Source: Blastocatellia bacterium (GTDB lineage: Bacteria > Acidobacteriota > Blastocatellia > UBA7656). Taken from it: DNA of 64,000 nucleotides. Position numbers and translations under genes: made by a program. The notes beneath the pieces are model-generated. The model saw only the letters and a program-made list of their open reading frames with translations. It did not search any database and was not told the DNA's origin. Positions 1-16,355 of this stretch are shown here, piece after piece (the first letter of the stretch is position 1; each line of letters starts with the position of its first letter). The DNA lies in contig DATDOV010000100.1 of NCBI GenBank assembly GCA_035293105.1, positions 90,857 to 154,856 on the forward strand. Direction: 5' to 3'.

Positions 1-519
1 ACGACCTGCCATAATCCGCACTCATCGGATGTGTCGGATATGTTGAAGGCTCCGGCAATCGACCTGTGCTTTGCTTGTCACACCGATAAGCAAGAAGAGT
101 TCAACACCAAGAAATTCACGCACGCGCCGCTGAAGGACTTGGGTTGCCCGACCTGTCACAACCCGCACGCCTCCGATGTCGCTCCTATCTTGAAGGCGGA
201 AAAGAACACTATTTGCACGTCGTGCCATAAGCTAAACGCCAAACTTCAGAGGAAAGCGGAAGGCACGTTCGTCGCCTTCGGCGACACCGTCGTGACAGCA
301 GAGTATCTCAGCAGGGCCAAGAAGATTCTCCTGAGTCCTGACGGAAAGGGTCATCCGTATGTCGGGCACCCGGTTAGCGGGGTTGCCGATCCTTCAGCAA
401 AGGAGAAACATCTGGCCTGCACGAGCTGCCACAACCCGCATTTCGGCAATTATGTCCAGAGATTTCAGAAGGACCTCAGAGGTCAGGCCTTGTGCGACAC
501 GTGCCACAAGCAGCAATGA
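1..519 (+). CDS. multihaem c-type cytochrome, 5'-truncated by window edge
   Basis: Frame is open from nt 1 (TTCHNPH...) and carries CFACH, CPTCH, CTSCH, CTSCH and CDTCH motifs, giving >=5-6 CxxCH haem sites in 172 aa. Confidence 0.8.
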   Translation, partial: TTCHNPHSSDVSDMLKAPAIDLCFACHTDKQEEFNTKKFTHAPLKDLGCPTCHNPHASDVAPILKAEKNTICTSCHKLNAKLQRKAEGTFVAFGDTVVTAEYLSRAKKILLSPDGKGHPYVGHPVSGVADPSAKEKHLACTSCHNPHFGNYVQRFQKDLRGQALCDTCHKQQ

Positions 520-530
520 CGAGGTGACGA

Positions 531-1616
531 ATGGCCCCAGTTAATGCACCAGCAAGCCGCGGACGCGGGCTTATCCTGCTCGCGCCCGTCGTGCTCCTGC
601 TGGCAGTTCCTTCACTGCTAGCTTCGGACAAAAAGAAGAATGAGAAGGTCAGGAAAGACGTACCGGACCTAGTGTGGCCACTTCCACCCGAGAAGCCCCG
701 CATCAAGTATGCAGGTTGGGTTTCAGATAACACGGACGTCGAACCTCCGCAGAAGAAGGGATGGCTATCGAAGCTTATCAATGAAGAGGAAACACGCAGG
801 GTGTTCGGGATGACGCGGCCCGCCGGCATCGCGGTCGACTCGTCGGGGAGGATCTACGTCGCCGATACGCTCAAGGCGGTTGTCTTCGTGTTTGACATGG
901 ACAAGAAGAGGCTCAGTTTGCTGGGCGGTGATGCACGCGGCAGACTTGCCGGGCCGTTCGGGATCGCAATAGACGATAAGGACAACGTCTACGTTTCGGA
1001 CACTGGGCTAAAGCGAGTCAATGTTTACGACAAGAGCGGGAAACTGACCGCTGCAATCAAGAAGGTGGGGAGTGAAACTATAGTCAATCCTGCGGGGCTT
1101 GCGATCGACCCGGGCAGAGGCCGCTTGTACATCGTCGATTCCCAGGGCCATAGGGTTTTCTGGGCCGATTTGAATCAACTCGACAAAGGAGGCTCTTTTG
1201 GCACGAGGGGAGAAGACGACAATGAGTTCAACTTTCCCTCGTACGTCGCCGTAGACCCGCAGGGCAATCTCTACGTCACGGACACGTTGAATTTCTGCGT
1301 CAAGGTGTTCGACAAAGACTTCAAATTCACGAGGCGAATCGGAGAACACGGTACAGGGTTCGGCATGTTCGATCGCCCGAAAGGAATTGCGCTCGACAGC
1401 GAAGGCAATATCTACGTTGTCGACGCAACATTCAGCAACTTCCAAATCTTCAATCCCGAAGGCCAGCTACTGCTTTTCGTAGGTGGCTTCGGGGAGGAGC
1501 CGGGTTCCTTCCGCCTACCGTCTGGAATATTCATAGATAAAAAAGACCGGATTTACGTTTCGGATCAGATAAACAGACGGCTGCAGATCTTTCAGCTTCT
1601 AAGAGGAAAATCATAA
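531..1616 (+). CDS. secreted NHL-repeat (six-bladed beta-propeller) protein
   Basis: N-terminal signal peptide (LILLAPVVLLLAVPSLLAS). Repeated ~45-aa units with YV[AS]D..N.R[IV].V[FY]D pattern (e.g. IYVADTLKAVVFVFD, VYVSDTGLKRVNVYD, LYIVDSQGHRVFWAD, LYVTDTLNFCVKVFD, IYVVDATFSNFQIFN, IYVSDQINRRLQIFQ). Confidence 0.75.
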   Translation: MAPVNAPASRGRGLILLAPVVLLLAVPSLLASDKKKNEKVRKDVPDLVWPLPPEKPRIKYAGWVSDNTDVEPPQKKGWLSKLINEEETRRVFGMTRPAGIAVDSSGRIYVADTLKAVVFVFDMDKKRLSLLGGDARGRLAGPFGIAIDDKDNVYVSDTGLKRVNVYDKSGKLTAAIKKVGSETIVNPAGLAIDPGRGRLYIVDSQGHRVFWADLNQLDKGGSFGTRGEDDNEFNFPSYVAVDPQGNLYVTDTLNFCVKVFDKDFKFTRRIGEHGTGFGMFDRPKGIALDSEGNIYVVDATFSNFQIFNPEGQLLLFVGGFGEEPGSFRLPSGIFIDKKDRIYVSDQINRRLQIFQLLRGKS

Positions 1617-1648
1617 GCGCCGCTGTGAAACCAGTGGGCGCTTTTCAT
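1616..1648 (+). terminator. rho-independent terminator-like hairpin after NHL gene
   Basis: AAGCGCC-gctgtgaaaccagt-GGGCGCTTTTC sits immediately after the TAA stop at 1614-1616. Confidence 0.5.
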
Positions 1649-1671
1649 AATCTCGGAAAGGAGAAGCTGTA

Positions 1672-2385
1672 ATGTTGATCAAAAGGCTTCTGGTGTTGGT
1701 GTTTGTCTTTGCGCTCGGTGGTTATGCATACGCACAATACACTGGCGATGGGTCGAAGTCGGCGATCGTAGGCACCAACCACGACCTGAGGAGCGAATTC
1801 AGCGGTGCGACGGCAGTCTGCGAATTCTGCCACGCTCCGCACAAACTCAGTAACCCGACGATCACGGCTCCATTACTATGGAACGTTCAGGTGAAGACGG
1901 GGAGCTACGGCACCTACAGTAGCTCGACGTTGGATGCCACGGATGTTCGCAACCCGGCTTCGGCTAGCAGCGCCAACAGCGCGGCATTCATGAGCCTGCT
2001 GTGTCTCAGTTGCCACGATGGCACGGTCACTGAAGCCGCTTTCTACAACAGGGAAGGCCTTGGAGGATCGGGTTCCTTCAGCCCTCCCAATATCGGCGAA
2101 CAATCGACGGCTGGCTTGACTAACGACCATCCAGTCGATTTTACGTACAGCGCCGCATTAGCAACGGCGGATGGGGGGCTCGCGACACCAACAGAAGGAA
2201 CCGGTGTCAGGGTTCCGTATGTTGGAAGCGGGGCCAACAGCCTACCGCTTTTCAAGGATGCCTCGACCGACGCCAGCGGGCGTCTGGAGTGCGCTACGTG
2301 TCACAATCCTCATAACAACGCCAACGACCCCTTCCTGAGAAGGAGTAATGGCGCAAGCGCTCTCTGTACGTCGTGTCATACCTAA
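1672..2385 (+). CDS. tetrahaem c-type cytochrome (secreted)
   Basis: Signal peptide MLIKRLLVLVFVFALGGYAYA. Carries CEFCH, CLSCH, CATCH and CTSCH. Ser/Thr/Gly-rich linker. Confidence 0.8.
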   Translation: MLIKRLLVLVFVFALGGYAYAQYTGDGSKSAIVGTNHDLRSEFSGATAVCEFCHAPHKLSNPTITAPLLWNVQVKTGSYGTYSSSTLDATDVRNPASASSANSAAFMSLLCLSCHDGTVTEAAFYNREGLGGSGSFSPPNIGEQSTAGLTNDHPVDFTYSAALATADGGLATPTEGTGVRVPYVGSGANSLPLFKDASTDASGRLECATCHNPHNNANDPFLRRSNGASALCTSCHT

Positions 2386-2440
2386 CAACGGTGCAGAGGT
2401 GTGAGGGGCAGGCCTCACACCTCGCTGTTGCTCCAGAGAG

Positions 2441-3550
2441 GTGTCCATGAAAAAGAAAGCGGTAGTGTACCTAGTCGGCGCTTCGTCGCTCGCCGTTCTT
2501 CTCGCTCTGTATTTCCTGGCCAAGGGCAACGGCGTTGCCGAATCCCCAGAGCTGAGCACTCCCATCGAATCCGGGAGTGCCAAGCCGGCGCTTCATGAGC
2601 AAGTCTCATCCCGGTTCCCGCTTGCTTTGCCGCTCCCCGCCAAACCCGAAGACACAGGCAAAAACTCTGCGAGTCCCGGCGTTGTGGCGACCGTGAACGG
2701 CATTCCGATAACGGCAAAGGAGGTCGAAGAAGAACTCAACAGGCTCCTGATGTCCCCGACAGCCCACGGCGGGATGGACGCGAGAAGGAAAGATGATGTG
2801 CGAAAGTCCGCGCTTGACGAACTGATTGTCCGCGAACTGGCGTTTCAAAGGGCCAAGGCGATGAGATTGACGGTCGACGCGGATGAGGTCGCCGCTTCGA
2901 TCAAGACAATAAGACAGCGTTACAACTCGGAGCAGCGTTTCCAGAGAGCACTAAAGATCGAAGGGATGACCGAAAACGAGTTTCAGCAGAGAGTTGAGAG
3001 AGATCTCCTTCTCAAGAAGATTCACCAGGTGGAAATCGAGGACAAAGCTCAAGTCGGCGAAGACGAAGTAAGAAAATACTACGAGGAGAACAAGGTTAAG
3101 TTTTTGCTCCCCGAGTCCATTCAACTGAAACACATCGTCGTCAGGATCGGCGCGCGGAAAGAGCCCGAGGCCAAAAAGCTGATCGACACGATCAGCGAGA
3201 AGCTGAAGAAGGGAGAAGACTTCTTCGACCTGGCCTACAAGTTCTCAGAGGACGAGTATCGCGTCGTTGGCGGTGATTACGGCTCGGTGCATCTGGGACA
3301 ATTGGATCCCGAACTTGAGGCAGTCGCGTTTGCTGCTGCGGTGAACCAATTGACGGGTCCGTTCAAGACCAGCCGCGGCTGGCACATCATCAGCCTCGAG
3401 AAGAAGCAGGCCGAGCGGCAACTGAAGTACGAAGACGTAAAGGAAAAGATCAAAGGCGGCCTCCAACAGAAGCTGCGGAGCAAGAGGCGGTCGGAGTTCG
3501 TCAGTGAGTTGAGGGCTTTGGCCCAAATCCAGTACCTGAGCCGCCGCTGA
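2441..3550 (+). CDS. SurA-like periplasmic chaperone / PpiC-type (parvulin) peptidyl-prolyl isomerase
   Basis: Signal/anchor, then a SurA_N-like helical region, then a parvulin rotamase signature (GGDYGSVHLGQLDPELEAVAFAAAVNQLTGPFKTSRGWHIISLEKK). Confidence 0.7.
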   Translation: MSMKKKAVVYLVGASSLAVLLALYFLAKGNGVAESPELSTPIESGSAKPALHEQVSSRFPLALPLPAKPEDTGKNSASPGVVATVNGIPITAKEVEEELNRLLMSPTAHGGMDARRKDDVRKSALDELIVRELAFQRAKAMRLTVDADEVAASIKTIRQRYNSEQRFQRALKIEGMTENEFQQRVERDLLLKKIHQVEIEDKAQVGEDEVRKYYEENKVKFLLPESIQLKHIVVRIGARKEPEAKKLIDTISEKLKKGEDFFDLAYKFSEDEYRVVGGDYGSVHLGQLDPELEAVAFAAAVNQLTGPFKTSRGWHIISLEKKQAERQLKYEDVKEKIKGGLQQKLRSKRRSEFVSELRALAQIQYLSRR

Positions 3551-3565
3551 TCAAAGAATGTGTGA

Positions 3566-5437
3566 GTGCGCGCAATGAAACGCCCGGTGTCACAACTTGC
3601 CGTCTTGATGCTGATCGCTCAGTGCTTCGCTCCTGCCTACTCGCAGGAGAGACTAAACCTGAGCGGGGTACTGACCATGGGCTACTCCAAGACGCAGCAG
3701 ACCGCTCAGGCCGTGAACCCTGATGTCGTCACCGAGAATCAATCGCGCGAATTCGGTATCGGTCTTGACTTGAACCTGGGCGCATATATCATCGACCCTC
3801 GTTTCATTAAGGTCTCGTTCGAGTCGAGCTTTCTTCGCAACAAGGGGGCCTTCGATGAATTCCAGACGCGGTACGGTATAACAGGGAAGAATGTCTATGT
3901 TGATTTCCTCCCGACCTCGCCTTATCCATTCAGGTTTCACTACATCAATCAGAGCAGCAACTATCTCCAGAGGCCGATTGCCTCGGCGGCCACCGGGCGC
4001 CGGAGCCTGGGCTTCAACTGGGCGCTGAGATTGCCAAAGTATCCCAAGCTCAGTGTGAGCTACGACAGCACGAGTTTTGACTACAGCTTTACTTCAGGCG
4101 TTATGGCCAAGAGTCACACCAGGACGTTCAACGCCGGAGTTTCGGGTAGCTATAGAGGGTGGGACTTCACCTCCGGATATGACAACCAGACGACGACCGA
4201 TGGGCGCTTGCAGCTAGGAACGTATCAGAACCTTTGGCGCCTCGACGCACGCAAGCCTGTATCGAAGAAGTCAAACCTGTACGTCGGCACTTTCTACCAG
4301 GGACTTAGGTTTTCGAGCGAGGTTACGGGGTTGAGACAACGATTGTCATTCTTCGATATTCACTCGGAGTTCAGCACTCAACACACTAACAAGCTCAGCA
4401 GCAGATTCGCGCACCAGTTCTATTACAACACCAGCACCCAGGAGACTGATCAGCAAGGCGTTCGACCCGAAGCGGGAGCCGTCGCTGCTCCAGCGGTGCC
4501 GGCGCTACGTCCCACGCGCACAACTACACAGTTCAACGTCGTCGATGGCCTGGTGGCCTACCGAGTACGGTCGGAGGTCACGGTCAGCGGGACCCTCAGC
4601 ACCCGGCTGACGAATGCTCCGAACGAATCAACCGAAGCAGCGACTCGATTCTTCGATCTTGGAGGAACAATCACCTGGAACAGGAGAATCGCCTTCGCCG
4701 AAACAAGGGCTGCCTACAGCCAGGGCCTCGAATACGCCGGGTCGAACATGGGCAGTAGCCGAAGGACCGAGCACCATAGCCTCGCGGCGGGCCTTAGTCT
4801 GGGTAACAGGAAGCGCGCCCTCGTCACCGCTGATTTCAACCTGTCTTATCGCCCCGATATTTTTCAAGCCGGCGGATTCTTCTCACAGAAGTACTTCAAC
4901 GCCGGTGTCGAGAGCGAAGCGTTGAGGGCTCTCAGGTTGAGCGCGTCGGTCGGGAAAAACGAGGTCGAATACCTGACTTTCAACGGACGTGAGCACTTGC
5001 GCCGCACGTCGTATTCGGCCGGCGTGGATCACCGGCGATTCACGCTGGTCTTCTCACGAAACTCGAACGCCGGATTGCGAGACGTCTTCGCGATCCCCGT
5101 ACCGTTGGAGCCAAATCGGATCTTCAGAGTTCTGCCCGTCGGTTCGCTGATCAGCAATCCCCTATTAAACACCTCCGCGTTCAATACCTTTGCTCTGCTG
5201 AGAGTGCGGCCCAGAAGGAATCTGGACCTGGAAGCGAGGTATTACCAGGACAGGGCGCTGTTCGTGACAACAAACAATGTCTTCGTCAAGCAGTGGGACG
5301 TGATCGCTACATACAAACTCGGGAAGTTCACCTTCTACGGGGGCGCGCTGTTTTACAAGCAGACAACCGAGGGATTGTTGTCCAGAGACAGGACGTACTA
5401 TTTCGTCCGGGTAACTCGGCCGTTCAAGGTGCTTTGA
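3566..5437 (+). CDS. putative outer-membrane beta-barrel (porin-like) protein
   Basis: Signal peptide MRAMKRPVSQLAVLMLIAQCFAPAYSQ. 623 aa rich in S/T/N/G/Y/R with alternating amphipathic beta-strand-like stretches. C-terminus is ...YYFVRVTRPFKVL. No enzymatic motifs were seen. Confidence 0.5.
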   Translation: MRAMKRPVSQLAVLMLIAQCFAPAYSQERLNLSGVLTMGYSKTQQTAQAVNPDVVTENQSREFGIGLDLNLGAYIIDPRFIKVSFESSFLRNKGAFDEFQTRYGITGKNVYVDFLPTSPYPFRFHYINQSSNYLQRPIASAATGRRSLGFNWALRLPKYPKLSVSYDSTSFDYSFTSGVMAKSHTRTFNAGVSGSYRGWDFTSGYDNQTTTDGRLQLGTYQNLWRLDARKPVSKKSNLYVGTFYQGLRFSSEVTGLRQRLSFFDIHSEFSTQHTNKLSSRFAHQFYYNTSTQETDQQGVRPEAGAVAAPAVPALRPTRTTTQFNVVDGLVAYRVRSEVTVSGTLSTRLTNAPNESTEAATRFFDLGGTITWNRRIAFAETRAAYSQGLEYAGSNMGSSRRTEHHSLAAGLSLGNRKRALVTADFNLSYRPDIFQAGGFFSQKYFNAGVESEALRALRLSASVGKNEVEYLTFNGREHLRRTSYSAGVDHRRFTLVFSRNSNAGLRDVFAIPVPLEPNRIFRVLPVGSLISNPLLNTSAFNTFALLRVRPRRNLDLEARYYQDRALFVTTNNVFVKQWDVIATYKLGKFTFYGGALFYKQTTEGLLSRDRTYYFVRVTRPFKVL

Positions 5438-5438
5438 C

Positions 5439-6524
5439 ATGCGCTTAGCGATGAGTTCAAACAAGCCGAAGCTCACTAAGCTTGTCGCTGCCACTCTCTT
5501 TGGCGTTGCACTCGTTTTCTCGCTCTTCATAGCGTCAAACGGCGAGCACGGCGACAAAGAGAAAGAGCTGTACTGGCCCAGCCCGCCTGATCCGCCGCGA
5601 ATCAAGTACGTGCGCAGCATCGCGTCTCCGCGGGACCTTAAGCTCAAGCAGTCGTCGTTTCTCAAACGCGTGGTCAAGAAGATCATCGGGACCGAGGATC
5701 CCGAACCAGCCATGATGTCGCCATACGGCATCGTCACCGACAGCCGCCAGCGCATCATCGCAGTCGATTCAAAGGCGAGGATGATACACGTCTTCGATCC
5801 GCAGGAGAAGAAGTACGTCGCCATCAGGGCGCCGAAGAAAGAGATGTTCGTCTCGCTGGTCGGCGTAGCCGTCGACGGACAGGACAACATCTACGTCTCG
5901 GACTCGTACACCGGGAAGATATTCATCTTTGATCGAAACGGCAAACTCATTAAGAGGATTGGTTCCGAGGAAGGAAGCTTCAATCGGCCCACCGGCATTG
6001 CGATAGACAAGGCTTCGCGGCGCCTGTACGTCGTCGAAACCGTGAAAGGCGAGGTCGACGTGCTGGACCTTGACGGGATTGGATTATTCAAGTTCGGCAA
6101 GCGCGGAGAAGGCCAGGGCGAGTTCAATCACCCGACGCAAATATGCGTCAGCGGCGACAGCGTGTATGTCACCGACACGCTGAACGCTCGCATTCAAGTC
6201 TTCGACAAGGACGGACATTTTATTTCGGTGGTGGGGCGGCACGGCGATGGCATTGGGGATTTGGACAAACCCAAAGGCGTCGCGATCGATAGCCACGGGC
6301 ACATCTATGTCGTCGAAGGGCTTCGCGACCGGGTTCAGATATTCGATAAGGAAGGGAACCTTCTCCTCGTGTTCGGCGAGACGGGATCCGACAGAGGAGA
6401 GTTCTACTTGCCGACGGCCATCCACATAGACGCCGACGACAATATCTACATCTCCGATTCCAGCAATCGGAGAATCCAGGTCTTTAGGTACCTGAGAACG
6501 CCAGGGGCAGCGATAAGGGATTGA
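5439..6524 (+). CDS. secreted NHL-repeat protein, paralog of 531..1616
   Basis: Same length (361 aa) and same repeat pattern (IYVSDSYTGKIFIFD, LYVVETVKGEVDVLD, VYVTDTLNARIQVFD, IYVVEGLRDRVQIFD, IYISDSSNRRIQVFR). Signal anchor present. Confidence 0.75.
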   Translation: MRLAMSSNKPKLTKLVAATLFGVALVFSLFIASNGEHGDKEKELYWPSPPDPPRIKYVRSIASPRDLKLKQSSFLKRVVKKIIGTEDPEPAMMSPYGIVTDSRQRIIAVDSKARMIHVFDPQEKKYVAIRAPKKEMFVSLVGVAVDGQDNIYVSDSYTGKIFIFDRNGKLIKRIGSEEGSFNRPTGIAIDKASRRLYVVETVKGEVDVLDLDGIGLFKFGKRGEGQGEFNHPTQICVSGDSVYVTDTLNARIQVFDKDGHFISVVGRHGDGIGDLDKPKGVAIDSHGHIYVVEGLRDRVQIFDKEGNLLLVFGETGSDRGEFYLPTAIHIDADDNIYISDSSNRRIQVFRYLRTPGAAIRD

Positions 6525-6527
6525 TCT

Positions 6528-8423
6528 ATGAGAGCGAGGAGATTGCTGCTAATAGGTTTTTTCTGTTGCGTGCTCGGCGAAGTGGTCCATAGCCAGAGTT
6601 CCAAGGCGCAGTTGTTCAACTCAAAGCACGACTTCAGGGTCAACAGCAGCGCCGCCATTCGCTCCACAGCGGAAGGCCGAATCTGCGTTTTCTGCCACTC
6701 GCCCCACAACGGCAATCCGAGCCCCCAGATATGGAACCACAAGACGTCATCGGTTTCGAACTATCCCCTCTACGGCAGCACGACCATGCGGGCGACCACC
6801 ACCCAACCGACTAGTTCAGACTCGTCGAAATTGTGCCTGAGCTGTCACGACGGAACCGTGGCGCTGGGTGATACGGTGAACAACGGCCTCATTCCTTTCA
6901 TTCAGGGTTCGAACTTCACGCTTCCCGCGTCTTCGTCTTCGAACCTTCATAAAGGCGTCGGTTTTTCCGATGATCACCCGTTCGCTTTTCTGCCGGTCAC
7001 CGGCTCGGAGATAAGAAACCCGCCTGCGGGTGACGCGGTGAAGCTGGACCGATCGGGCAAGATGCAGTGCACGTCCTGTCACGATCCTCACGTTCAATCG
7101 AAGGACGCAACCGTCGGCAAGTTTCTCGTCGAATCGAATCTGAAATCGGCCCTTTGCACCACCTGTCATACTAAGACAGGCTGGACTGCGGCATCGCACA
7201 AACAGCCTGCAAGCGGTGCGAATGACAACAGGTACGGAACCTCGCAGGGCGCGCACACCGGTTACACGGGCGTGTCGAACAACGGCTGCGAAAGTTGTCA
7301 TCGCCCGCACTCGCCCGCGGTGGGACAGCGTCTGCTCAAGTTTGTGGAGGAAGACACTTGTTACAAGTGCCATAACGGTTCGGTCGCAGACACCAACAAG
7401 AACATACAATCGGAGTTCCAGACTAAGACGTACCGGCATCCGGTGTCGACCACGCCATCGGTGCACGACGCATCAGAAGGTCCGGCCTCGCTGACCTATA
7501 AACTGCCGGAGAGTTCGTCGGGAGCCGCGCGGCACGCCGAATGCGCGGACTGCCACGACCCTCACGCCGCGAATCCGCAAACCGGTTCGCCGCCGTCCGT
7601 CGCCGGCTACTTGCGTGAAGTCGCGGGCATTTCATCCTCGGGCACGGAAGCTTCGAGCGCGAATTACGAATACGAGGTGTGTTTCAAGTGTCACGCCGAC
7701 AGCGCGAACAAACCACAGCTTCTCGGCGGTGTGAGCTTTGGCCGGAATCCGCTGCGACAGACCGACGATAACAATCCCAGCCGCTTCAATTCCCGATTTG
7801 AGTTCAACTCGAGTGTCGCCTGGCATCCGGTGATAAACCCACGAGGCCTCTCAACAGGAACGAGCGGGTTCGTTCCGAGCCTCAGGTCAGCGCCGCTTGG
7901 GACCAACGGCCAGCCGCTGCCGGGAAGGTCGCTCTCGGCAAGCAGCTTCATATACTGCACCGACTGCCACAACAACAGCTCGGGAAGGAACCTCGGAACG
8001 GGAACGGGTCCCAGCGGCCCGCACGGCTCGAACATCATTCACCTGCTCGAGCGCAACTACTCATACAACACGCCTCCTGCAAATCCGGGCGGGACGATGG
8101 GACAGGTGACTTACTCGACCGCCGCTTATGCTCTGTGCAACAAGTGCCACGACGTCGACGGCAGCATCGTACAGAACCGAAGCTTCAAGGAGCACGACAA
8201 GCACATTCGTGGAGAAGGGGCCTCGTGCTCGGTATGTCACGACTCGCATGGGATCAACGGCGGCAACGCGACCAACAACAAGTTTCTGATCAATTTCGAT
8301 CTGAGCATAGTCGGCCCGGACAGCAGCGGCCGGCTCAGGTATGAATCGACTGGTTTTCGACGAGGCAGTTGTTACCTGACCTGCCACGGCGAGGAGCACA
8401 ACCCTAAGACATACAGTCAGTGA
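6528..8423 (+). CDS. large multihaem c-type cytochrome (~12 haems), secreted
   Basis: Signal peptide. Carries CVFCH, CLSCH, CTSCH, CTTCH, CESCH, CYKCH, CADCH, CFKCH, CTDCH, CNKCH and CSVCH, plus a C-terminal CX3CH variant (CYLTCH). Confidence 0.85.
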   Translation: MRARRLLLIGFFCCVLGEVVHSQSSKAQLFNSKHDFRVNSSAAIRSTAEGRICVFCHSPHNGNPSPQIWNHKTSSVSNYPLYGSTTMRATTTQPTSSDSSKLCLSCHDGTVALGDTVNNGLIPFIQGSNFTLPASSSSNLHKGVGFSDDHPFAFLPVTGSEIRNPPAGDAVKLDRSGKMQCTSCHDPHVQSKDATVGKFLVESNLKSALCTTCHTKTGWTAASHKQPASGANDNRYGTSQGAHTGYTGVSNNGCESCHRPHSPAVGQRLLKFVEEDTCYKCHNGSVADTNKNIQSEFQTKTYRHPVSTTPSVHDASEGPASLTYKLPESSSGAARHAECADCHDPHAANPQTGSPPSVAGYLREVAGISSSGTEASSANYEYEVCFKCHADSANKPQLLGGVSFGRNPLRQTDDNNPSRFNSRFEFNSSVAWHPVINPRGLSTGTSGFVPSLRSAPLGTNGQPLPGRSLSASSFIYCTDCHNNSSGRNLGTGTGPSGPHGSNIIHLLERNYSYNTPPANPGGTMGQVTYSTAAYALCNKCHDVDGSIVQNRSFKEHDKHIRGEGASCSVCHDSHGINGGNATNNKFLINFDLSIVGPDSSGRLRYESTGFRRGSCYLTCHGEEHNPKTYSQ

Positions 8424-8680: not shown

Positions 8681-11161
8681 ATGAAGCGCGCGGTCTTGTA
8701 CGTCGTTGTCACGATGCTCATCTGCTTTTCGTTCAACGTCCCTGCGGTCGCGCAAGACACTCAGGGATCCTATTCCCTGCCGCCGGGCCATGTCATCCCC
8801 GGCCGGCCCTGGTCCAGCATTATCCCCGATCCCGACAGGTTCGACTGGACAGCTCGCGACGGCGGCCGGCCAGGTTACCGGTACCGCGGGATGCTGCCCA
8901 TGCAGCAGCGGTTCTACGACTACATCCAGCAGCAGCGACGTGCCAACATACCCCTGAGTTGGGCGGAGCAGGCGACGATCCGCTGGCTCATCTCGTCTCG
9001 GCGGTGGCCCGAAGCGCCCCGGCCCAACGCTTTCTGGTCGGCTTTCATGCGCTACCTCCGCGACCAACCGACCAGGAACCTCAACATCGCCCAGTCCATC
9101 ATGCTGGACCAGCTACGCTCGCGTGGCCTCGTGCCCGTCGACAGGGCTCCTGATCCCAATTTCGCGCGCATACGCGACTACCTCAACTCCGGTCCCTTTC
9201 ATTCGCGCAACTGGTTCGAGCGCGTTTTCGGCCGCGCCGAGCCTTGGATGGACAATCTCTACGCGGGTTGGGGGTATGACCTTCGGCCCAGCGCGCCGTC
9301 CGGCAATTCCTTCCCTGCGGGCGACCCTTTCAACGGCTTGAAGATCACTTATAACGTCAGCGGCGCGACGCTGAGCGCACCTGTCGACAGCGGGAGCTTC
9401 ACCATCAATCGCAGCTTCAAAGGAGTCCTGGGAACCGGCATGCTCGCCATTTCCGGCACGGTTCGCGTCGGCGGCTACGGCGCGGACGTCAGCCTCAGCG
9501 TCTGGGCGGGCGACAAGAAGGAAGAGAAGAAGTTCTACGTCGAGAACAAGGGCAGCAACGGCAACCCTCAGAACTTCAACCTCTCGGTGCCGATCCCCGG
9601 GGGGGCGCGCACCGGCGGCTTCGCCATTCGACTAGACGGCCGCTACTCGATGGGCGGCGGCCACCGCGGCTGCTACGTGACGGGTGAGTTCGGTCCCTCA
9701 CAAGCCCAGATCGACGCCGATCGCGCCGCTGCCGACGCCAAGTGGCGCCGGGAGGTCGAGGACACCCTCGCCCGCCTCGGTTATCAGAACACGCCCGAGG
9801 GCAAAGAGATCGAGGAGATGCGCAAAGCCCTGGCCGGCGGCGACGCGGCATGGAAGGCCTTCGTTGATGACCGTCTCGAACGGATGCGCGGGGACGACTC
9901 TCCCGAGATTGCGGAGTACAAGGAACTGGAGAACGCGATGACGGCCGGCGGCGCGGAGTGGGATAAATACGTCGCGGCTCATGGCACGTCCGGATCGACC
10001 GGTAGTCGCGGCAACGCCGTGGCGGCTTCGTCACTCATAAAACAGGGCCGCGACTACTACGAGAAGAACAAGTACAACGAAGCCGCCGATGCCTTCACGA
10101 AGGCGATCGAAGCCAATCCTGATTCGGCGGAAGCCTACACGGGCCGCGGCAACGCCAGGCGCAGCTTGCGCGACTATGCAGCCGCAAGCGCCGACTTCAA
10201 CAAGGCGATTGCACTCGATGCGCGAGCTTCCGAAGCCTATCGCGGTCGCAGCATGGTCAAGCGCGCGCAGAATGATTTCAGCGGCGCGCTGGCGGACGCG
10301 AATCGCGCGATCGATCTCGCGCCGAATTTCGATCGCGGTTATTTGACGCGGGGACTCGCGCGCGAAGGTCTGAAGGACCTCGCCGGCGCGCTCTCCGATT
10401 ACAACCGCGCGATCTCGCTTGATCCGAGCTACGCTATGTCCCACTACTATCGCGGCCGCGTGCTATTTGAGAGCAAGGACTACGCGAGGGCGATCCCGGA
10501 CTTCAACCGCGCGATCTCGCTCGACCCAAGTTACGCGATGTCCTATTTCCAGCGCGGACGCGCGCGATATGCGAGCAAGGACTACGATGGCGCGCTTGCA
10601 GACTACAACCGTTACATCGAGATGAACGCGACCGACAGCGCTGCGTTCAACAATCGCGGCCTGGTGAAGGAACGACTGGGAGACAAGAACGGGGCTATCG
10701 CTGATTACGAAAAAGCAGTCAGCATTAATCCTCAGAACGAAATCGCGAAGGGAAACCTCAGTCGTTTGCGAGCGACCTCCACAGCGACAAACCCATCCGG
10801 CTATCCCGATGTCGCGGGCGAGTGGGTTGAAGTATCGGGATATCCCTCGAACGGGAGCCCGATCACTATCACTCAATCCGGCGCTAACATTGTCGCAGTC
10901 GGTCGCTACACCATCGGGAATACTGCAATTGCATATAGAGTCGACGGGACCCTGACGCGTGACGGAGTGATCACTGGGCGGCTGGTCCACACCAAGGGCG
11001 TCTCGCCCGGTTCGCCGGGATTTGCCCAGGACCGGCGGATGACGCTCACGCCAGACGGCAACACCCTCAACATCTCGACAGCGTCGGTGGGTGGTGGAGG
11101 CGCGCATCAACTGAGTTGGCGGCGACGGGATCCAACGTCAACGAAGACAACCCCGCCTTAG
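8681..11161 (+). CDS. secreted TPR-repeat protein (826 aa) with unknown N- and C-terminal domains
   Basis: Signal peptide MKRAVLYVVVTMLICFSFNVPAVAQD. About 10 TPR units in aa ~450-700 (AEAYTGRGNARRSLRDYAAASADFNKAIALD..., YYRGRVLFESKDYARAIPDFNRAISLDP..., FNNRGLVKERLGDKNGAIADYEKAVSINP). Confidence 0.7.
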   Translation: MKRAVLYVVVTMLICFSFNVPAVAQDTQGSYSLPPGHVIPGRPWSSIIPDPDRFDWTARDGGRPGYRYRGMLPMQQRFYDYIQQQRRANIPLSWAEQATIRWLISSRRWPEAPRPNAFWSAFMRYLRDQPTRNLNIAQSIMLDQLRSRGLVPVDRAPDPNFARIRDYLNSGPFHSRNWFERVFGRAEPWMDNLYAGWGYDLRPSAPSGNSFPAGDPFNGLKITYNVSGATLSAPVDSGSFTINRSFKGVLGTGMLAISGTVRVGGYGADVSLSVWAGDKKEEKKFYVENKGSNGNPQNFNLSVPIPGGARTGGFAIRLDGRYSMGGGHRGCYVTGEFGPSQAQIDADRAAADAKWRREVEDTLARLGYQNTPEGKEIEEMRKALAGGDAAWKAFVDDRLERMRGDDSPEIAEYKELENAMTAGGAEWDKYVAAHGTSGSTGSRGNAVAASSLIKQGRDYYEKNKYNEAADAFTKAIEANPDSAEAYTGRGNARRSLRDYAAASADFNKAIALDARASEAYRGRSMVKRAQNDFSGALADANRAIDLAPNFDRGYLTRGLAREGLKDLAGALSDYNRAISLDPSYAMSHYYRGRVLFESKDYARAIPDFNRAISLDPSYAMSYFQRGRARYASKDYDGALADYNRYIEMNATDSAAFNNRGLVKERLGDKNGAIADYEKAVSINPQNEIAKGNLSRLRATSTATNPSGYPDVAGEWVEVSGYPSNGSPITITQSGANIVAVGRYTIGNTAIAYRVDGTLTRDGVITGRLVHTKGVSPGSPGFAQDRRMTLTPDGNTLNISTASVGGGGAHQLSWRRRDPTSTKTTPP

Positions 11162-11504: not shown

Positions 11505-13481
11505 TCAACGTTGAGAGTCTACAGGTCGCACCGGTCCGCCCGTCACGATCTCCCTTATCTTTCTCACTTCCGCTTCAGCCTTATTCAACTCGTCGTAGGA
11601 AGATTTGCGGAGGGCGAGGTAACTATTGCAATCCACGGGCAATCGATACGCGCTCTTCAGACGATTTATTTCGCCTTCGGCCCTCAATCCTTGTTGCTCT
11701 ATTTGTCTCGACAGTTGTCTCAATCTGTCCACCTCAGCGACCATTCTCATTTCATCCCGTCCATTGGTTGCATCGGCTATTGCCTCGTCTCTTTCTTGCT
11801 CAAGCGCCGCCGCCTTGGTAGTCAGCGCACTCACCTTGCCGTCAAGTTCTTTCCTGGCCTTCTCAGCCTCCTGGTACGCCGCCAGCGCTGCCTCCTCCGC
11901 AAACAATGCGTCCGCACGCCCCATTTCCGCAAACGCCCTCGCATCGTCGGCTTTCTTCACGAGGTCGTCCCGCACCGCCTTCTCGTACGCGGCCTGACCC
12001 CTCGCCTCGATTTCTTGACGTGCCGAGTCACGATCAGCAAGCGCATCTCTAACTTCGGTTCTAGCGATAGCCGCCTCAGTCCTAGTTTGAATCACCAGGA
12101 CGGCCACTGAAGCTATTACGAGAGCGGCCATTAGACAGATACCAACCAGCCAGTACAACCGTCGTCTCCTGACTCGGTCCGCTTCCTCAAGTCTACGGCG
12201 CTCGATCTCCGCCAGTCGTTCCACCTTCTTTTGACTTATCCATGGAACGAGAAACTCACTGACGATGTCATAGAAGTAGGTATTGTACCGTCGTTCCCGA
12301 CGGACAAGTTTGGTGTCCTCCACCAAGGCATTCAAAGCAGCTTTCAACCGGCCTTCAGGGATGTTCTCGCCGTCAGGCGCCCGACCGATCAGGTCTTCTT
12401 CGGAAACGACGTTGCGTGTACCGGCGGCGGTTACGAGGCGGCTTAGCAAAGCTACAGCCGGGTCTCGGAGATCATCTGCACGACGCGAGCTGTCGCTGGC
12501 TAACCGGGCACCGGAAAGCAACGCCATGGCCGGACTCGGCGGATCACCTGCAAGCTGGTTAAGAGCGTCCGATAGATAGTCCTCCAGAAGACCCTGAACG
12601 CCTCTCTGTTTGAACAAGCCTCCGGGGTCGGGGGACTCCCACAGCCTTCGGCAGGCAATCTGAACCTCGGACAAGCTGAGCGCCCCGGATTCCGTTCGCT
12701 CATCAATGGCGGCTGCCAAATCCTGAGCCAGTTCCGGTGAGAGTTCCGCCCTAAAGCTCCCTGGGAACCTCTCGAAAGGTCCACGGATAATGTTATCCAA
12801 TGCCTTCGTACGCAGCGTCGTTAGCCGCAGGTATTGATCCGGCAATTCGGGGCAGAGCACGAATAACTTCGTGAGCTTCGCCAGGTAGTCTTCCCTGAAT
12901 GTGAACAGGAGCTTCACCCCAAGCCGCGGGTCGCGCATCAACTCGACCACAGCCTGGAGAATCGCCTGCTGCGCGGCTTGAGCTTCTTTCAAAGCCTCGC
13001 CTCGCGGGGCTTCCTCGAACAAGGTGACGAACTCTTCAAACTGGTCGAAGATCAACAACGGTTGCCGGTCGGCCGCTGCGGCCCTGAGCTTCTCCATGAA
13101 AGCGCTAATAGAGAGCACGATGCGCGGGCGCTCCTCGTCATCGGCGAAGACCGACGGCAGGAACGGTGCCTTGCCGTCGCCGGGAATCGAGATGCGCTCG
13201 ACGACGATCTCCTCATTGCGGGGAGGCTGAACGCGTAGTCTTTCCGGCGTAAAGCCCTCGGTGATCGTCGCTGGGATCAATCCCGCGTTGATCAGAGAAG
13301 ACTTGCCCGAGCCCGATTCGCCGTAGAACAACACGCCGCGATAGATCGTGACGTAGCGCAGCAGCTTCCTAGTTTCTTCCTCTCGCGCGAAGAAGATCGC
13401 TTGATCGGCATAGCGGAAGGAGTCGATTCCGCGGTAGGGCGACTCGGGCAGCGAAAGCGGCGCGGTTGCAGAGCTTGTCAT
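11505..13481 (-). CDS. nSTAND/NACHT-like P-loop NTPase with C-terminal transmembrane helix and long coiled coil
   Basis: The N-terminus PYRGIDSFRYADQAIFFAREEE...VLFYGESGSGKSSLINAGLIP (Walker A) and Walker-B-like LLIFDQFEEFVTLFEE are the pattern of bacterial STAND NTPases usually fused to WD40/TPR. Here aa ~447-470 form a TM helix (LYWLVGICLMAALVIASVAVLVI) followed by ~190 aa of heptad-rich coiled coil. The start overlaps the stop of the upstream SIR2 gene (ATGA). Confidence 0.75.
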   Translation of the reverse strand: MTSSATAPLSLPESPYRGIDSFRYADQAIFFAREEETRKLLRYVTIYRGVLFYGESGSGKSSLINAGLIPATITEGFTPERLRVQPPRNEEIVVERISIPGDGKAPFLPSVFADDEERPRIVLSISAFMEKLRAAAADRQPLLIFDQFEEFVTLFEEAPRGEALKEAQAAQQAILQAVVELMRDPRLGVKLLFTFREDYLAKLTKLFVLCPELPDQYLRLTTLRTKALDNIIRGPFERFPGSFRAELSPELAQDLAAAIDERTESGALSLSEVQIACRRLWESPDPGGLFKQRGVQGLLEDYLSDALNQLAGDPPSPAMALLSGARLASDSSRRADDLRDPAVALLSRLVTAAGTRNVVSEEDLIGRAPDGENIPEGRLKAALNALVEDTKLVRRERRYNTYFYDIVSEFLVPWISQKKVERLAEIERRRLEEADRVRRRRLYWLVGICLMAALVIASVAVLVIQTRTEAAIARTEVRDALADRDSARQEIEARGQAAYEKAVRDDLVKKADDARAFAEMGRADALFAEEAALAAYQEAEKARKELDGKVSALTTKAAALEQERDEAIADATNGRDEMRMVAEVDRLRQLSRQIEQQGLRAEGEINRLKSAYRLPVDCNSYLALRKSSYDELNKAEAEVRKIREIVTGGPVRPVDSQR

Positions 13482-14359
13482 AGCGGCATCTCCTCGCCCG
13501 TAACGGCACGGTACAGTTTCGGAAGGAAAGTCCAGACGTCCTGCGCGATGAACTTGACGTACTGCTCCTGGTCGGCCAATACCTTAACTAACAAGAGGTC
13601 GGGATGGGGATCCACGGAATACGTGTTCGGGCGGTTCGCTTTATCGATCCGCCAGCGCAGGGTCTTGAACAGCAGCCGGAGGTTGTAATCCATGAGGCTG
13701 TAACCCACGAACAACGTCGGCCAGCGCTTGAAGTTGTAGCGGAAGGTCTCCGGCACCGGGTGGTAGGGGTCCTTGTCGCTCATACGCAAGACGAACTGAA
13801 TGTAGTCTTCATCGGTGACGACGATGGATTCGGGTTTCTGGATATCGCCATGAATCTTGAAGACGAAAGGCCGCGTGCTGGTCGCGTCAGTGTAGTCGGC
13901 CGTCACGGTGTACTCTTCCTTGCTGTAGACGCCGATGTATGGGTCCTTTGCCGCGTCCCACAGCGCTCTTTCATAGAGTTGGTCGTAGTTGGTGGTGATG
14001 ACGAGCGGAAAGTTCAATCGCGCGAGCGCGCGAAGCACGGGCGAAGGCTTCTTCCCGACCTGCACAGCACTGACCATCTCTTCGACCAACTCGCGCCGCG
14101 AGCGTTTCGTCTCGTAGTACAGCGACACTCTTTGGAGATTGCCCGTGCTCTCGCGGGGGAACTGCTCGGCAAAGCCGCTCTTGGCGGCGAGCCGCTCGGA
14201 GAGCGCGCGGCCGAGCGGCGGGCGCTCGGATTCAGGGTAGCTGTACTTCGAACCTTCGGGCGGCGGGTAATGCACACCAGCTCCCATGAAGAGAATACAC
14301 TGACCGTTGTTCACCTTCTCGGCAATCGCAGCAATCGTCGCCTCGTCGGCATGCTCCAT
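13478..14359 (-). CDS. SIR2-like (SIR2_2 / DSR-ThsA-type) NADase-domain protein
   Basis: Motifs CILFMGAGV, NFPLVITTNYDQLYERA, FKIHGDIQKPESIVVTDEDY and LFVGYSLMDYNLRLLF are characteristic of the SIR2_2 family. The start was chosen at MEHADE (ATG 14359), with RBS AAGGAG 8 nt upstream. The longer ORF (to 14626) would overlap the vWA gene. Confidence 0.8.
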   Translation of the reverse strand: MEHADEATIAAIAEKVNNGQCILFMGAGVHYPPPEGSKYSYPESERPPLGRALSERLAAKSGFAEQFPRESTGNLQRVSLYYETKRSRRELVEEMVSAVQVGKKPSPVLRALARLNFPLVITTNYDQLYERALWDAAKDPYIGVYSKEEYTVTADYTDATSTRPFVFKIHGDIQKPESIVVTDEDYIQFVLRMSDKDPYHPVPETFRYNFKRWPTLFVGYSLMDYNLRLLFKTLRWRIDKANRPNTYSVDPHPDLLLVKVLADQEQYVKFIAQDVWTFLPKLYRAVTGEEMPL

Positions 14360-14538
14360 CGTAGTCCGCTCCTTCGTGACGGTCAGGTGACTTGCAATGA
14401 GATTTATGATTGCGCGGCGGATATCGACAGGGGTTACATCCGCGTCGTGGCTAATCCTACTACAAAAAGCAGCGTGACTGATAGTAGGGAGGAGGTGGCC
14501 GTCAAAAGGGACTCTGGGAATCGAGAGGTCCGGAGGAG

Positions 14539-16230
14539 TCAACGCTTCGCCCGCAGGACAACCACTTTGTCTTCGCCTTCCTTGACCTCGAAGTCTATGC
14601 GGTCGTACTCGCCCTTCTGCCTCCAACCGGTGACGCTGTATCGCCCGGGAGTAAAGGGGTACTTTTCGTTCGAGTTCCTGAAGATTCTCTCATTGCCGTT
14701 GGCTGTGCTGGCGAAGCACCGATCGGGTTTATCCGGCGTGCCATCGGCCTTCTGATAGACGAAGGTCACGTGGCCGACCGGAACCGTGATGTCGAAGTGC
14801 TGCTGCTTCTGGTCGGTCACCACGATCCCGGTCTTGACGTACGGTGTCAGAGCGTTGGGCAAACGCACATCGTAGACGCCGGGAAGCACAGTCTCGCCCA
14901 GCGTCATGTGCACGCGGTACCTCTTCTCGCCGTTTTGCCATAGCTCGTAGTTCTCGCGAAACCATATTCCCGAGCCCGACGCCACCATCTTCACCGTCAC
15001 CCGAACCGTGTGGGCCATGCCGAAGACGATTTCTTTGCGTTCTCCGGCGGCGATTGTTGCCGTCGTCGAGAGATCATTCGCAGCGTTAGGCCGCGCGCGA
15101 AACTCGTAGGCGCCTTCATCGACGAAGACCTCATCAAAATAGCGGAAACTGAAGACCTCTTTGCCGTCTTGAAAAGCATGGACCAGCGAGCCGCGCTGAT
15201 CCTCGCCCTGGTCGGTGAATCGCGCTCTCACGGTTGGCGGCGTGGGGACCTCGACCTTGACCACAGTCGCGCCGGTATCCGCGACTTGGACGCTCTTGGT
15301 CACGGGCCTGTACATATTGCCGTTAGCCGTCGGAACCCCGGCCGTCAGCGTGTACTGGCCGGCCTCGACGCGGCCGGCGCTGCTGCTTGTAACTTTGTAA
15401 AGGTCCCGGCCCTCGCGCGAGAGAACGCCGACGACTCTTATGCGGCTCCCCGCTGCGTCGACGCCCTGTAACCAGAATCCCGCGAGGGCTGCTTGCGCTT
15501 GCTTATGGATCTTCCCCATTTCATCAGCCAGCGTTAAAGCCGACTGGGCATCGTGATACTGGGTGCCTGCTGCGTTGGAGATGCACTCGAGGGTCTGTCG
15601 CTCTTTTTCGCCGAGTCCGAAGCCGACGACGTGAACCTTGATCTTCACGTTTTTGTTTTTCCACTCGCGGACCAGCGCGCACGGGTCGGCTTCGCAAGAC
15701 TCGATGCCGTCGCTGATGAGGATAATCTCGCCGGGCCGGTCGCCGAAATCTTTGAGGGCCTCAGCGAGGCTGTACGTTATCGGCGTTCTGCCAATCGCGT
15801 TTATTCGCTTGATCGACTCCTTGAACTGAGCGACGACTTTTTCGGGAGGGCCGAAGGGAATTAGAAGCTCAGAATCCGCGCAATCCTCTTTTCTCCGGTG
15901 GCCGTAGACTCGAAGCGCGAGGTCGTAACCGGGAAAATCCTTGGCGACGAAATCCTGGAGTACCTGTTTGGCCGCATCGATCCGGCGCGACTTGTCGGGC
16001 AAACGCGCCATCATCGAGCCCGACGCGTCGAAGATGATATAGATGCCGGCCGCTTTGTTTTCCTGCTGGGCAGCTTGAGCCGCAGAGTCGGGTGAGGGGG
16101 CATCATCGCTGCGCTTCTCAACTACCGGTGTAACCACCGCCGGGTTGTTGCCCGCGTCGCCTGACGGCGGAGCGGTGGAGCAACCGGCGATGGCGCATAC
16201 GACCGCGATGTAAATCAGTTCAATCTTCAT
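14539..16230 (-). CDS. von Willebrand factor A (vWA) domain lipoprotein with C-terminal beta-rich domains
   Basis: Lipoprotein signal MKIELIYIAVVCAIAGCS. vWA MIDAS-type start IYIIFDASGSM...LISDGIESCEADPC...VHVVGFGL. Confidence 0.7.
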   Translation of the reverse strand: MKIELIYIAVVCAIAGCSTAPPSGDAGNNPAVVTPVVEKRSDDAPSPDSAAQAAQQENKAAGIYIIFDASGSMMARLPDKSRRIDAAKQVLQDFVAKDFPGYDLALRVYGHRRKEDCADSELLIPFGPPEKVVAQFKESIKRINAIGRTPITYSLAEALKDFGDRPGEIILISDGIESCEADPCALVREWKNKNVKIKVHVVGFGLGEKERQTLECISNAAGTQYHDAQSALTLADEMGKIHKQAQAALAGFWLQGVDAAGSRIRVVGVLSREGRDLYKVTSSSAGRVEAGQYTLTAGVPTANGNMYRPVTKSVQVADTGATVVKVEVPTPPTVRARFTDQGEDQRGSLVHAFQDGKEVFSFRYFDEVFVDEGAYEFRARPNAANDLSTTATIAAGERKEIVFGMAHTVRVTVKMVASGSGIWFRENYELWQNGEKRYRVHMTLGETVLPGVYDVRLPNALTPYVKTGIVVTDQKQQHFDITVPVGHVTFVYQKADGTPDKPDRCFASTANGNERIFRNSNEKYPFTPGRYSVTGWRQKGEYDRIDFEVKEGEDKVVVLRAKR

Positions 16231-16355
16231 CGGACCCTCTGTTCGCTTGTCTTCCTTCGCAGTGGTTCGTCTCCGAATCAGTAGGCGCGACAACTTGGTG
16301 GATAAAAGCCAGTGTGAATAAACCGTAGTCGCGGCGCCGGCAAGCCCGCCGGGAA

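Follow-up and report, generated by a model that had tools for sequence, protein, structure and literature searches.

Experimental work on cytochrome nanowires has been carried out in very few organisms, mainly members of the Desulfuromonadia. The minimal gene cluster around the nanowire subunit OmcE consists of genes for two multiheme cytochromes, two beta-propeller lipoproteins, OmcE itself and a large beta-barrel protein; clusters of this kind have been described from five phyla, with the Acidobacteriota not included, and an assembly that is mounted on a porin has been favored (Petersen et al., 2025, 10.1101/2025.10.22.684050). In this study, we have examined a stretch of 64,000 nucleotides (hereafter the window) from a Blastocatellia bacterium of the Acidobacteriota (GenBank assembly GCA_035293105.1, contig DATDOV010000100.1, positions 90,857 to 154,856 of the forward strand), which starts with a seven-gene array for multiheme cytochromes, NHL beta-propellers, a peptidyl-prolyl isomerase (PPIase) and a putative outer membrane barrel at positions 1–8423, and we discuss how this array relates to the OmcE clusters and to other systems for extracellular electron transfer (EET).

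Companion proteins of nanowire cytochromes have also been described for OmcS, where, as far as the account relayed by a secondary source goes, the PPIase OscH is involved in folding, OscEFG in secretion and the propeller protein OscD in filament morphology (Shen et al., 2025, via PMC13194489). NHL propellers are found among the genes for outer membrane cytochromes in D. ferrophilus (Deng et al., 2018, PMC5815863). Within the Acidobacteriota, a porin-scaffold-cytochrome system named EET1, which includes OmcE-like cytochromes and is transcribed in peat, has been described recently (Fiorito et al., 2026, 10.64898/2026.05.27.727921).

Our analyses suggest, with a probability that we estimate at roughly 0.7, that the array carries the genes for an OmcE-type cytochrome nanowire system in this Blastocatellia bacterium. 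The cluster is an acidobacterial version of the known OmcE gene cluster, not a new type of porin-cytochrome complex. A preliminary description of the window had proposed a module for extracellular electron transfer, and this stands in outline, but the defining element had been missed, namely that the four-heme protein is a homolog of the OmcE nanowire subunit.

Organization of the gene cluster

Seven open reading frames follow each other on the plus strand at positions 1–519, 531–1616, 1672–2385, 2441–3550, 3566–5437, 5439–6524 and 6528–8423, with gaps of 11, 55, 55, 15, 1 and 3 nucleotides, in this order. The number and direction of the genes are thus as previously described, although the smallest gap is 1 nucleotide and not 2 in the range of 2–55 bp given at that time. 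The first gene is cut by the edge of the window, of which only the 3′ part (172 codons) with five complete CXXCH motifs and a sixth that is truncated at the edge is included. The full-length version is located on the identical contig L002 (7940–8848) and codes for a c-type cytochrome of 302 amino acids with nine CXXCH motifs; the first cytochrome is thereby multiheme, as had been recognized from at least six motifs, and in its full length nonaheme. The earlier counts of four hemes in the second cytochrome and about 12 in the third agree with four CXXCH motifs in the former and 11 CXXCH motifs plus one CX3CH motif in the latter.

Pfam domains of the Paired_CXXCH_1 type were identified in all three cytochromes, which are encoded by the first, third and seventh genes, NHL domains in both proteins of 361 amino acids, and SurA_N and PPIC rotamase domains in the protein of 369 amino acids. 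The protein of 623 amino acids had no match in Pfam or NCBIfam at E ≤ 0.01, and NCBIfam provided no family-level assignment for the proteins in the cluster. No other open reading frame in the window contained two or more CXXCH motifs. The arrangement of the genes is not a product of chance, since the same set of genes was recovered from other genomes in 42 of 80 loci (see below) and since the identical cluster is present on six independent metagenome contigs.

The OmcE-like subunit and its flanking hairpins

The tetraheme protein of 237 amino acids (1672–2385) showed full-length similarity to the OmcE filament structure 7TFS (E = 2.5e-25 over residues 27–236 of 237) and to 9YUQ, the OmcE bundle of Desulfuromonas soudanensis (E = 6.5e-17), and a profile built from 26 homologs increased the significance of these matches to 1.8e-50 and 5e-38, respectively. 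Its sequence identity to OmcE in Geobacter sulfurreducens is 35% (E = 1e-28 in the comparison of the two loci). The protein contains eight histidines in total, four of which belong to the CXXCH motifs and exactly four of which do not. Among the latter, H37, H153 and H214 do not vary in the 26 aligned sequences and H57 is shared by 23 of them, and all eight histidines align with conserved ligand positions in the 26 homologs and OmcE. Judging from these alignments, the protein is a homolog of the OmcE nanowire subunit in which the heme ligands have been retained, and a candidate filament subunit.

The similarity to OmcE also bears on the idea that the cytochromes make up a periplasmic multiheme enzyme, resembling nitrite, hydroxylamine or sulfite reductases, that happens to be encoded next to an unrelated outer membrane protein. 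Parts of the cytochromes are weakly similar to NrfB, NrfH and NrfA, but every match to an Nrf-type family falls far short of its cut-off. Strong structural similarity was obtained solely to extracellular OmcE filaments, which are also the best matches, and the barrel protein is conserved in the module as a single copy. We therefore consider a periplasmic enzyme to be highly improbable.

The gene for the OmcE-like protein is bracketed by two hairpins, at positions 1615–1650 and 2386–2430, of which the downstream one is unusually stable. The first of these, located between the upstream NHL gene and the OmcE-like gene on the plus strand, is a weak terminator-like hairpin followed by a short U-run (ΔG −19.6 kcal/mol, z −2.3). 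It was missed in a scan for consensus promoters and terminators, which was uninformative since the counts were the same as for shuffled sequences. The second is a strong stem-loop on the same strand with a stem of 18 bp and no clear U-tract (ΔG −30.9 kcal/mol, z −3.55), which starts directly after the stop codon of the OmcE-like gene and was matched in stability by only 1 of 200 shuffled sequences. In G. sulfurreducens, a canonical intrinsic terminator occupies the equivalent place after omcE. Two related loci were inspected in the same manner: the GC-rich hairpin that follows the OmcE-like gene in L025 does not exceed shuffled sequence in stability (z −0.89), and no hairpin was found after the OmcE-like gene in L007. 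An attenuating hairpin after the gene for the major subunit is a known theme in chaperone-usher pili. One possible function for the stem-loop at 2386–2430 is as an attenuator or mRNA stabilizer that sets the excess of the subunit, and the hairpin in the window together with the terminator after omcE in Geobacter would fit with a highly expressed major subunit, although this is suggestive only.

A conserved module in many phyla

To estimate the distribution of the gene set, the OmcE alignment was scanned against one genome per species in GTDB. Relatives were identified in at least 554 species, and the 80 best loci were kept. Open reading frames were called in these 80 loci and searched with the proteins in the window and with an iterated profile for the barrel; many of the incomplete loci among the 80 represent short contigs. 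An OmcE-like gene was recovered in 70 of the 80 loci, at least two NHL genes in 53 and a homolog of the 12-heme cytochrome in 61, while a barrel of the same family as in the window, with exactly one copy per locus, was present in 62. All of these components co-occurred in 42 loci. The usual gene order is OmcE, NHL, a cytochrome with five to nine hemes, barrel, NHL and the 12-heme cytochrome, and the acidobacterial loci have the same gene order as in the window.

The module consisting of the OmcE-like protein, NHL, small cytochrome, barrel, NHL and 12-heme cytochrome is found in more than 15 phyla among the best 80 loci. As inferred from the titles of the records, these include Acidobacteriota, Bacteroidota, Ignavibacteriota, Calditrichota, Planctomycetota, Verrucomicrobiota, Nitrospirota, Myxococcota, Thermodesulfobacteriota and Gammaproteobacteria, among others. 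Complete clusters of OmcE, NHL, barrel, NHL and 12-heme genes were also observed in bins assigned to a Thermoplasmata archaeon (L037) and to the Chlamydiota (L024); an outer membrane barrel in a bin from an archaeon points to mis-binning of L037 rather than to gene transfer. Several genomes have more than one OmcE-like gene, with two or three copies that are arranged in tandem or located inside the cluster (L084, L016, L027 and L062; also L009, L010, L014, L041, L050 and L058).

The 12-heme cytochrome

The last gene in the array (6528–8423) encodes a cytochrome of 631 amino acids, in which 11 CXXCH motifs and an invariant CX3CH motif add up to 12 heme motifs. Residues 22–215, approximately, correspond to a complete OmcE-like tetraheme domain (7TFS, E = 2e-17). 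A family profile of 25 sequences matched 7TFS over the whole OmcE chain (2.6e-47) as well as 9YUQ (5e-39), and the middle part of the profile resembled 6QVM (6e-8), 6I5B (2e-5) and MtrA (6R2Q_A, 1e-6). We take 6QVM and 6I5B to be surface cytochromes of Gram-positive metal reducers. All 12 heme motifs and 28 histidines are invariant across the 25 sequences. In one locus, L009, a separate four-heme OmcE-like gene and a seven-heme gene take the place of the fused 12-heme gene, which may be a clue to the origin of the fusion or to its splitting.

We tentatively propose that the 12-heme cytochrome serves as an end-piece of the OmcE nanowire, while recognizing that this is less likely than not. The OmcE-like N-terminal domain would join the polymer by means of the same contact between histidine and heme that holds the subunits together, and the eight additional hemes would either connect the wire to the barrel and the periplasmic cytochrome at the base or form a reactive tip. 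Together with the second NHL protein and the barrel, this would make a six-gene machine of conduit plus wire that is present in more than 15 phyla and distinct from the omcE cluster in the Desulfuromonadia. No tip candidate was encoded in the OmcE operons examined by Petersen et al. (10.1101/2025.10.22.684050), and a role at one end of the filament, as its base or its tip, for a conserved 12-heme cytochrome with a fused OmcE domain is possibly a new point.

Alternatively, the array may encode a conduit across the outer membrane of the Mtr or Pcc kind, as in the preliminary description, that operates without a filament, with the nonaheme cytochrome inside the barrel, the 12-heme cytochrome as a terminal reductase at the cell surface, the NHL proteins as scaffold and the OmcE-like protein as a monomeric accessory. 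The list of parts is indeed similar to that of MtrA, MtrB and MtrC, with a barrel and both periplasmic and large multiheme cytochromes, and the resemblance of the middle part of the 12-heme family to MtrA, 6QVM and 6I5B is also in line with a conduit. Moreover, an acidobacterial system of similar description, EET1 with its OmcE-like cytochromes, has been modeled as an Mtr-like conduit (Fiorito et al., 2026, 10.64898/2026.05.27.727921). However, none of the proteins could be assigned at the family level to MtrB/PioB, DmsE/MtrA, OmcA/MtrC or GSU2203. The scores of the cytochromes against the DmsE/MtrA family (TIGR03508) were 73, 25 and 47 bits, compared to a cut-off of 192, and the score against the OmcA/MtrC family (TIGR03507) was 15.6 bits, compared to a cut-off of 209. 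For the Geobacter Pcc proteins, which have no dedicated model in the libraries searched, the nearest NCBIfam model, for the decaheme cytochrome GSU2203, gave 60 bits, compared to a cut-off of 325. The barrel likewise had no match to MtrB_PioB, and the membership in the Pcc/Mtr porin-cytochrome systems that was suggested in the preliminary description is consequently not retained. A conduit without a filament would also leave unexplained why a full-length OmcE homolog with all of its ligands is nearly constant in these loci (70 of 80). We regard the filament-free model as unlikely, but it is compatible with the presence of a wire in that the conduit could be the base on which the wire is mounted.

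NHL propellers, the nonaheme cytochrome and the PPIase

The two NHL proteins, which are here called NHL1 (531–1616; a six-bladed propeller, Pfam NHL 3e-34) and NHL2 (5439–6524), are 39% identical to each other and share an N-terminal WPxxPxxPRI motif with the NHL protein of the omcE locus in Geobacter (WPLPPEKPRI in NHL1, WPSPPDPPRI in NHL2 and WPPLPERPRI in Geobacter). The Geobacter protein matched NHL1 with E = 2e-59 and NHL2 with E = 5e-61. NHL1 has a signal sequence or anchor, and NHL2 is tightly coupled to the gene for the 12-heme cytochrome with a gap of 3 nucleotides. In the related loci, the NHL2 type is located directly 5′ of the 12-heme gene in 50 of 59 cases, and the NHL1 type and the OmcE-like gene are neighbors in 52 of 65. 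The two NHL proteins are thus distinct paralogs with fixed partners. The suggestion that each cytochrome has a dedicated propeller partner is in agreement with these conserved pairings, but not the accompanying view that such partners were previously undescribed, since NHL proteins next to outer membrane cytochromes were published in 2018 (PMC5815863) and propeller, barrel and PPIase companions of nanowire cytochromes in 2025 (10.1101/2025.10.22.684050; Shen et al., to the extent relayed in PMC13194489).

The nonaheme cytochrome (1–519) has an N-terminal hydrophobic signal or anchor in its full-length form and is homologous to the two cytochromes of the omcE locus in G. sulfurreducens (E = 4e-28 to c370 and 8e-26 to c330), with which it shares a C-terminal segment of the type HPVSG...CxSCHNPH. 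It is probably the periplasmic cytochrome through which electrons enter the system.

The PPIase (2441–3550) contains Rotamase_3 (2e-21) and SurA_N_3 (1.5e-18) domains and an N-terminal hydrophobic segment, and is a candidate folding chaperone. It had been described as a SurA-like chaperone, and while the combination of a SurA-N-like and a parvulin domain is consistent with this, the score against the SurA equivalog model PRK10770 was 59.7 bits, compared to a cut-off of 394. Among the generic PPIase models, the highest score was 119 bits, compared to a cut-off of 303, and the protein scored below the cut-off of every equivalog model in NCBIfam.

The predicted outer membrane barrel

The protein of 623 amino acids (3566–5437) contains a signal peptide and was modeled as a plain outer membrane barrel of about 28 strands, without a plug, POTRA or other accessory domain. 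The model resembles barrels in general, with no closer structural likeness. The prediction of strand number had been advised as a check in the preliminary description, and its outcome agrees with the beta-barrel candidate named there. Based on the model, we consider the protein to be a candidate for a secretion channel, sheath or anchor.

Two family assignments were tried and abandoned. One was to MtrB_PioB (PF11854), to which there was no match in the Pfam and NCBIfam scans. The other was to the barrel of 752 amino acids in the omcE locus in Geobacter, for which no signal was obtained by three rounds of iteration with hidden Markov models, by hmmsearch with the --max setting or by hhalign. 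A barrel of the Geobacter type was found in none of the 80 loci.

A model for the assembly and its direction of electron flow

In our model for the OmcE-type nanowire system, electrons would flow from the quinol pool to the periplasmic nonaheme cytochrome, and the barrel would serve both as the passage through the outer membrane and as the mounting point for the wire. The OmcE-like subunits would be exported by the Sec pathway, loaded with heme and kept competent for assembly by the SurA/parvulin chaperone, after which they would polymerize outside the cell, with one histidine donated to the heme in the next subunit, as in both of the solved OmcE filaments. Each NHL protein may serve one cytochrome as an assembly or morphology factor, NHL1 for the OmcE-like protein and NHL2 for the 12-heme cytochrome. 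The 12-heme cytochrome, finally, may join the conduit to the wire by means of its OmcE-like domain, or else cap the wire.

Several observations weigh against this interpretation. Filament formation is a candidate role for the protein in the window, as it is for other family members outside the Desulfuromonadia. OmcE-like tetraheme proteins are very common, as indicated by the at least 554 species with matches, and not all of them need to form wires. The AlphaFold2 model of the OmcE-like protein, built without hemes from the 26 homologs, had a confidence score (pLDDT) of 52 and was too poor for a fold search. The N-termini of NHL1 and NHL2 contain no cysteine or lipobox, whereas the Geobacter NHL protein has the motif LCAGC; among the 29 of 130 related NHL proteins that match a strict pattern, a lipobox-like motif is located just upstream of WP..P..PRI in 17. 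The PPIase was recovered in only 6 of the 80 related loci, where it invariably separates the OmcE-like gene from the barrel gene, and its absence from the other 74 implies that it is not a core part of the system. There is no detectable relationship between the barrel and the 752-amino acid barrel in Geobacter (hhalign probability 2.8%). Furthermore, the reduction of Fe(III) oxide was unimpaired by deletions of NHL-linked cytochrome clusters in D. ferrophilus, which were compared here by description only (PMC9769857), and the physiological role of the OmcS and OmcE filaments is itself disputed (PMC11077965).

The same hardware could also work in the opposite direction and, instead of reducing an extracellular acceptor, take up electrons with Fe(II), reduced minerals, cathodes or partner cells as the source. 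Clusters of the type in the window are present in sulfur-oxidizing Gammaproteobacteria (Thiodiazotropha, Sedimenticola, Thioalkalispiraceae), and a porin of the MtrB/PioB family and a multi-monoheme cytochrome c are encoded just upstream of the window on the contig L002. In D. ferrophilus, NHL-associated cytochrome clusters have been tied to the uptake of electrons from electrodes under donor limitation (PMC5815863), but these genes are similar to ours by description only. Because heme wires are reversible, the direction is not decidable from the sequence; overall, we give electron uptake a rather low probability.

Neighboring genes

A TPR-repeat protein of 826 amino acids with a signal peptide is encoded on the plus strand at positions 8681–11161, 257 nucleotides downstream of the cluster, and is also present on the contigs from the same organism. 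It was considered as a part of the module and set aside, as it is not located at that position in the nearest acidobacterial relative, L007, and its membership is uncertain. TPR proteins occur 3′ of some clusters in the Desulfobulbaceae and have been mentioned for clusters of the Geobacter type (10.1101/2025.10.22.684050).

Directly 5′ of position 1 in the window and on the same strand, positions 1–7800 of contig L002 encode a porin of the MtrB_PioB family (731 amino acids), a five-heme cytochrome, a molybdopterin oxidoreductase with a TAT signal (817 amino acids), a 4Fe-4S protein, a membrane subunit of the NrfD type, a TorD-like chaperone and a protein with four CXXCH motifs. These genes may encode an input module linked to quinol or, alternatively, another system for EET.

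Further into the window, genes for an nSTAND1 NTPase (658 amino acids), a SIR2-like protein (382 amino acids; best PADLOC match ThsA, 1.7e-21) and a VWA-domain protein (584 amino acids) are arranged in a row on the minus strand at positions 11505–16293. This looks like an anti-phage defense locus that is unrelated to the cytochromes. Other genes in the window encode a protein of 948 amino acids with TPR and CHAT (caspase-like) domains (23205–26051, minus strand), an outer membrane protein of 1018 amino acids with CarboxypepD_reg and OMP_b-brl_4 domains (30942–33998, minus strand) and a protein of 664 amino acids with multiple zinc ribbons and an FGE-sulfatase domain (42122–44116, plus strand). 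Long open reading frames without a match in Pfam are located at 20663–22126 (minus strand) and 60759–63161 (plus strand). A scan of the window for tRNA genes identified none.

Comparison with characterized systems

As a member of a published kind of gene cluster, the array in the window is an expected find, but it places a complete OmcE-type cluster in the Blastocatellia, a class from soil and sediment that is not known for metal respiration. From the recurrence of one fixed module across many phyla, a specific candidate emerges for the part at the base or tip of the wire. Carriers of the same module include the isolate Desulforhopalus sp. IMCC35007 (L073) and a metagenome-assembled genome from a relative of Ignavibacterium album (L065).

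Compared to MtrCAB in Shewanella and the Pcc system OmaB-OmbB-OmcB in Geobacter, the array contains additional genes for NHL propellers, a PPIase and an OmcE subunit. The barrel of MtrB has 26 strands, whereas about 28 strands are predicted for the barrel in the window. More similar by its description is the EET1 system, which belongs to the same phylum and combines a porin, a scaffold and OmcE-like multiheme cytochromes, but was found in Terriglobales/UBA7540 rather than in Blastocatellia and is interpreted as an Mtr-like conduit (Fiorito et al., 2026). In D. ferrophilus IS5, multiheme cytochromes are interleaved with two NHL proteins in the clusters DFE_0448-0451 and DFE_0461-0465, and the NHL gene DFE_0463 is located directly 5′ of the gene for the predicted extracellular cytochrome DFE_0464, which is reminiscent of NHL2 and the 12-heme gene; these likenesses are by description, and no porin is recognized in the clusters (PMC5815863, PMC9769857).

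The osc cluster in G. sulfurreducens is similar in that a PPIase, channel-like outer membrane proteins and a beta-propeller accompany a nanowire cytochrome, to the extent that the cluster is described in the secondary source, but OmcS is a hexaheme protein without sequence similarity to OmcE. By analogy only, chaperone-usher pili also combine a periplasmic chaperone, an outer membrane barrel and a polymerizing subunit with possible minor or adaptor subunits.

The closest resemblance is to the omcE clusters. The composition of the array fits the minimal set defined by Petersen et al. (2025), who studied the WTL bundles of Desulfuromonas soudanensis (9YUQ), but the propellers in that set are lipoproteins and those in the window are not. 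The three loci from Desulfuromonadia in our collection (L087 from G. sulfurreducens, L090 and L091) contain genes for a pair of cytochromes of 330–370 amino acids, one or two NHL proteins, OmcE, a barrel of 740–752 amino acids and glycosyltransferases, but no 12-heme fusion with OmcE. Neither the 12-heme protein nor the PPIase has a counterpart in any of the three. These loci also share a conserved protein of 480–521 amino acids without a match in Pfam (L091, 10850–13537; L087, 14191–15693), which has the N-terminal motif YGNTFFNQWTYDD or a similar one and is encoded between omcE, the barrel and the glycosyltransferases.

At the omcE locus in G. sulfurreducens, we take the cytochromes to be GSU0615 and GSU0616, the NHL protein to be GSU0617 and OmcE to be GSU0618. 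The window differs from this locus, which belongs to another phylum, by the additional 12-heme cytochrome with an OmcE domain, the second NHL protein and the PPIase, by the lack of downstream glycosyltransferase genes and by NHL proteins that are not lipoproteins. What the two loci have in common is an OmcE homolog, an NHL protein with the WPxxPxxPRI motif, a homologous periplasmic cytochrome with eight or nine hemes, a large barrel that adjoins the subunit gene and a hairpin or terminator 3′ of the subunit gene. The gene-by-gene homology of OmcE, the NHL protein and the cytochrome of 300–370 amino acids holds for G. sulfurreducens and for the two other loci from the Desulfuromonadia alike.

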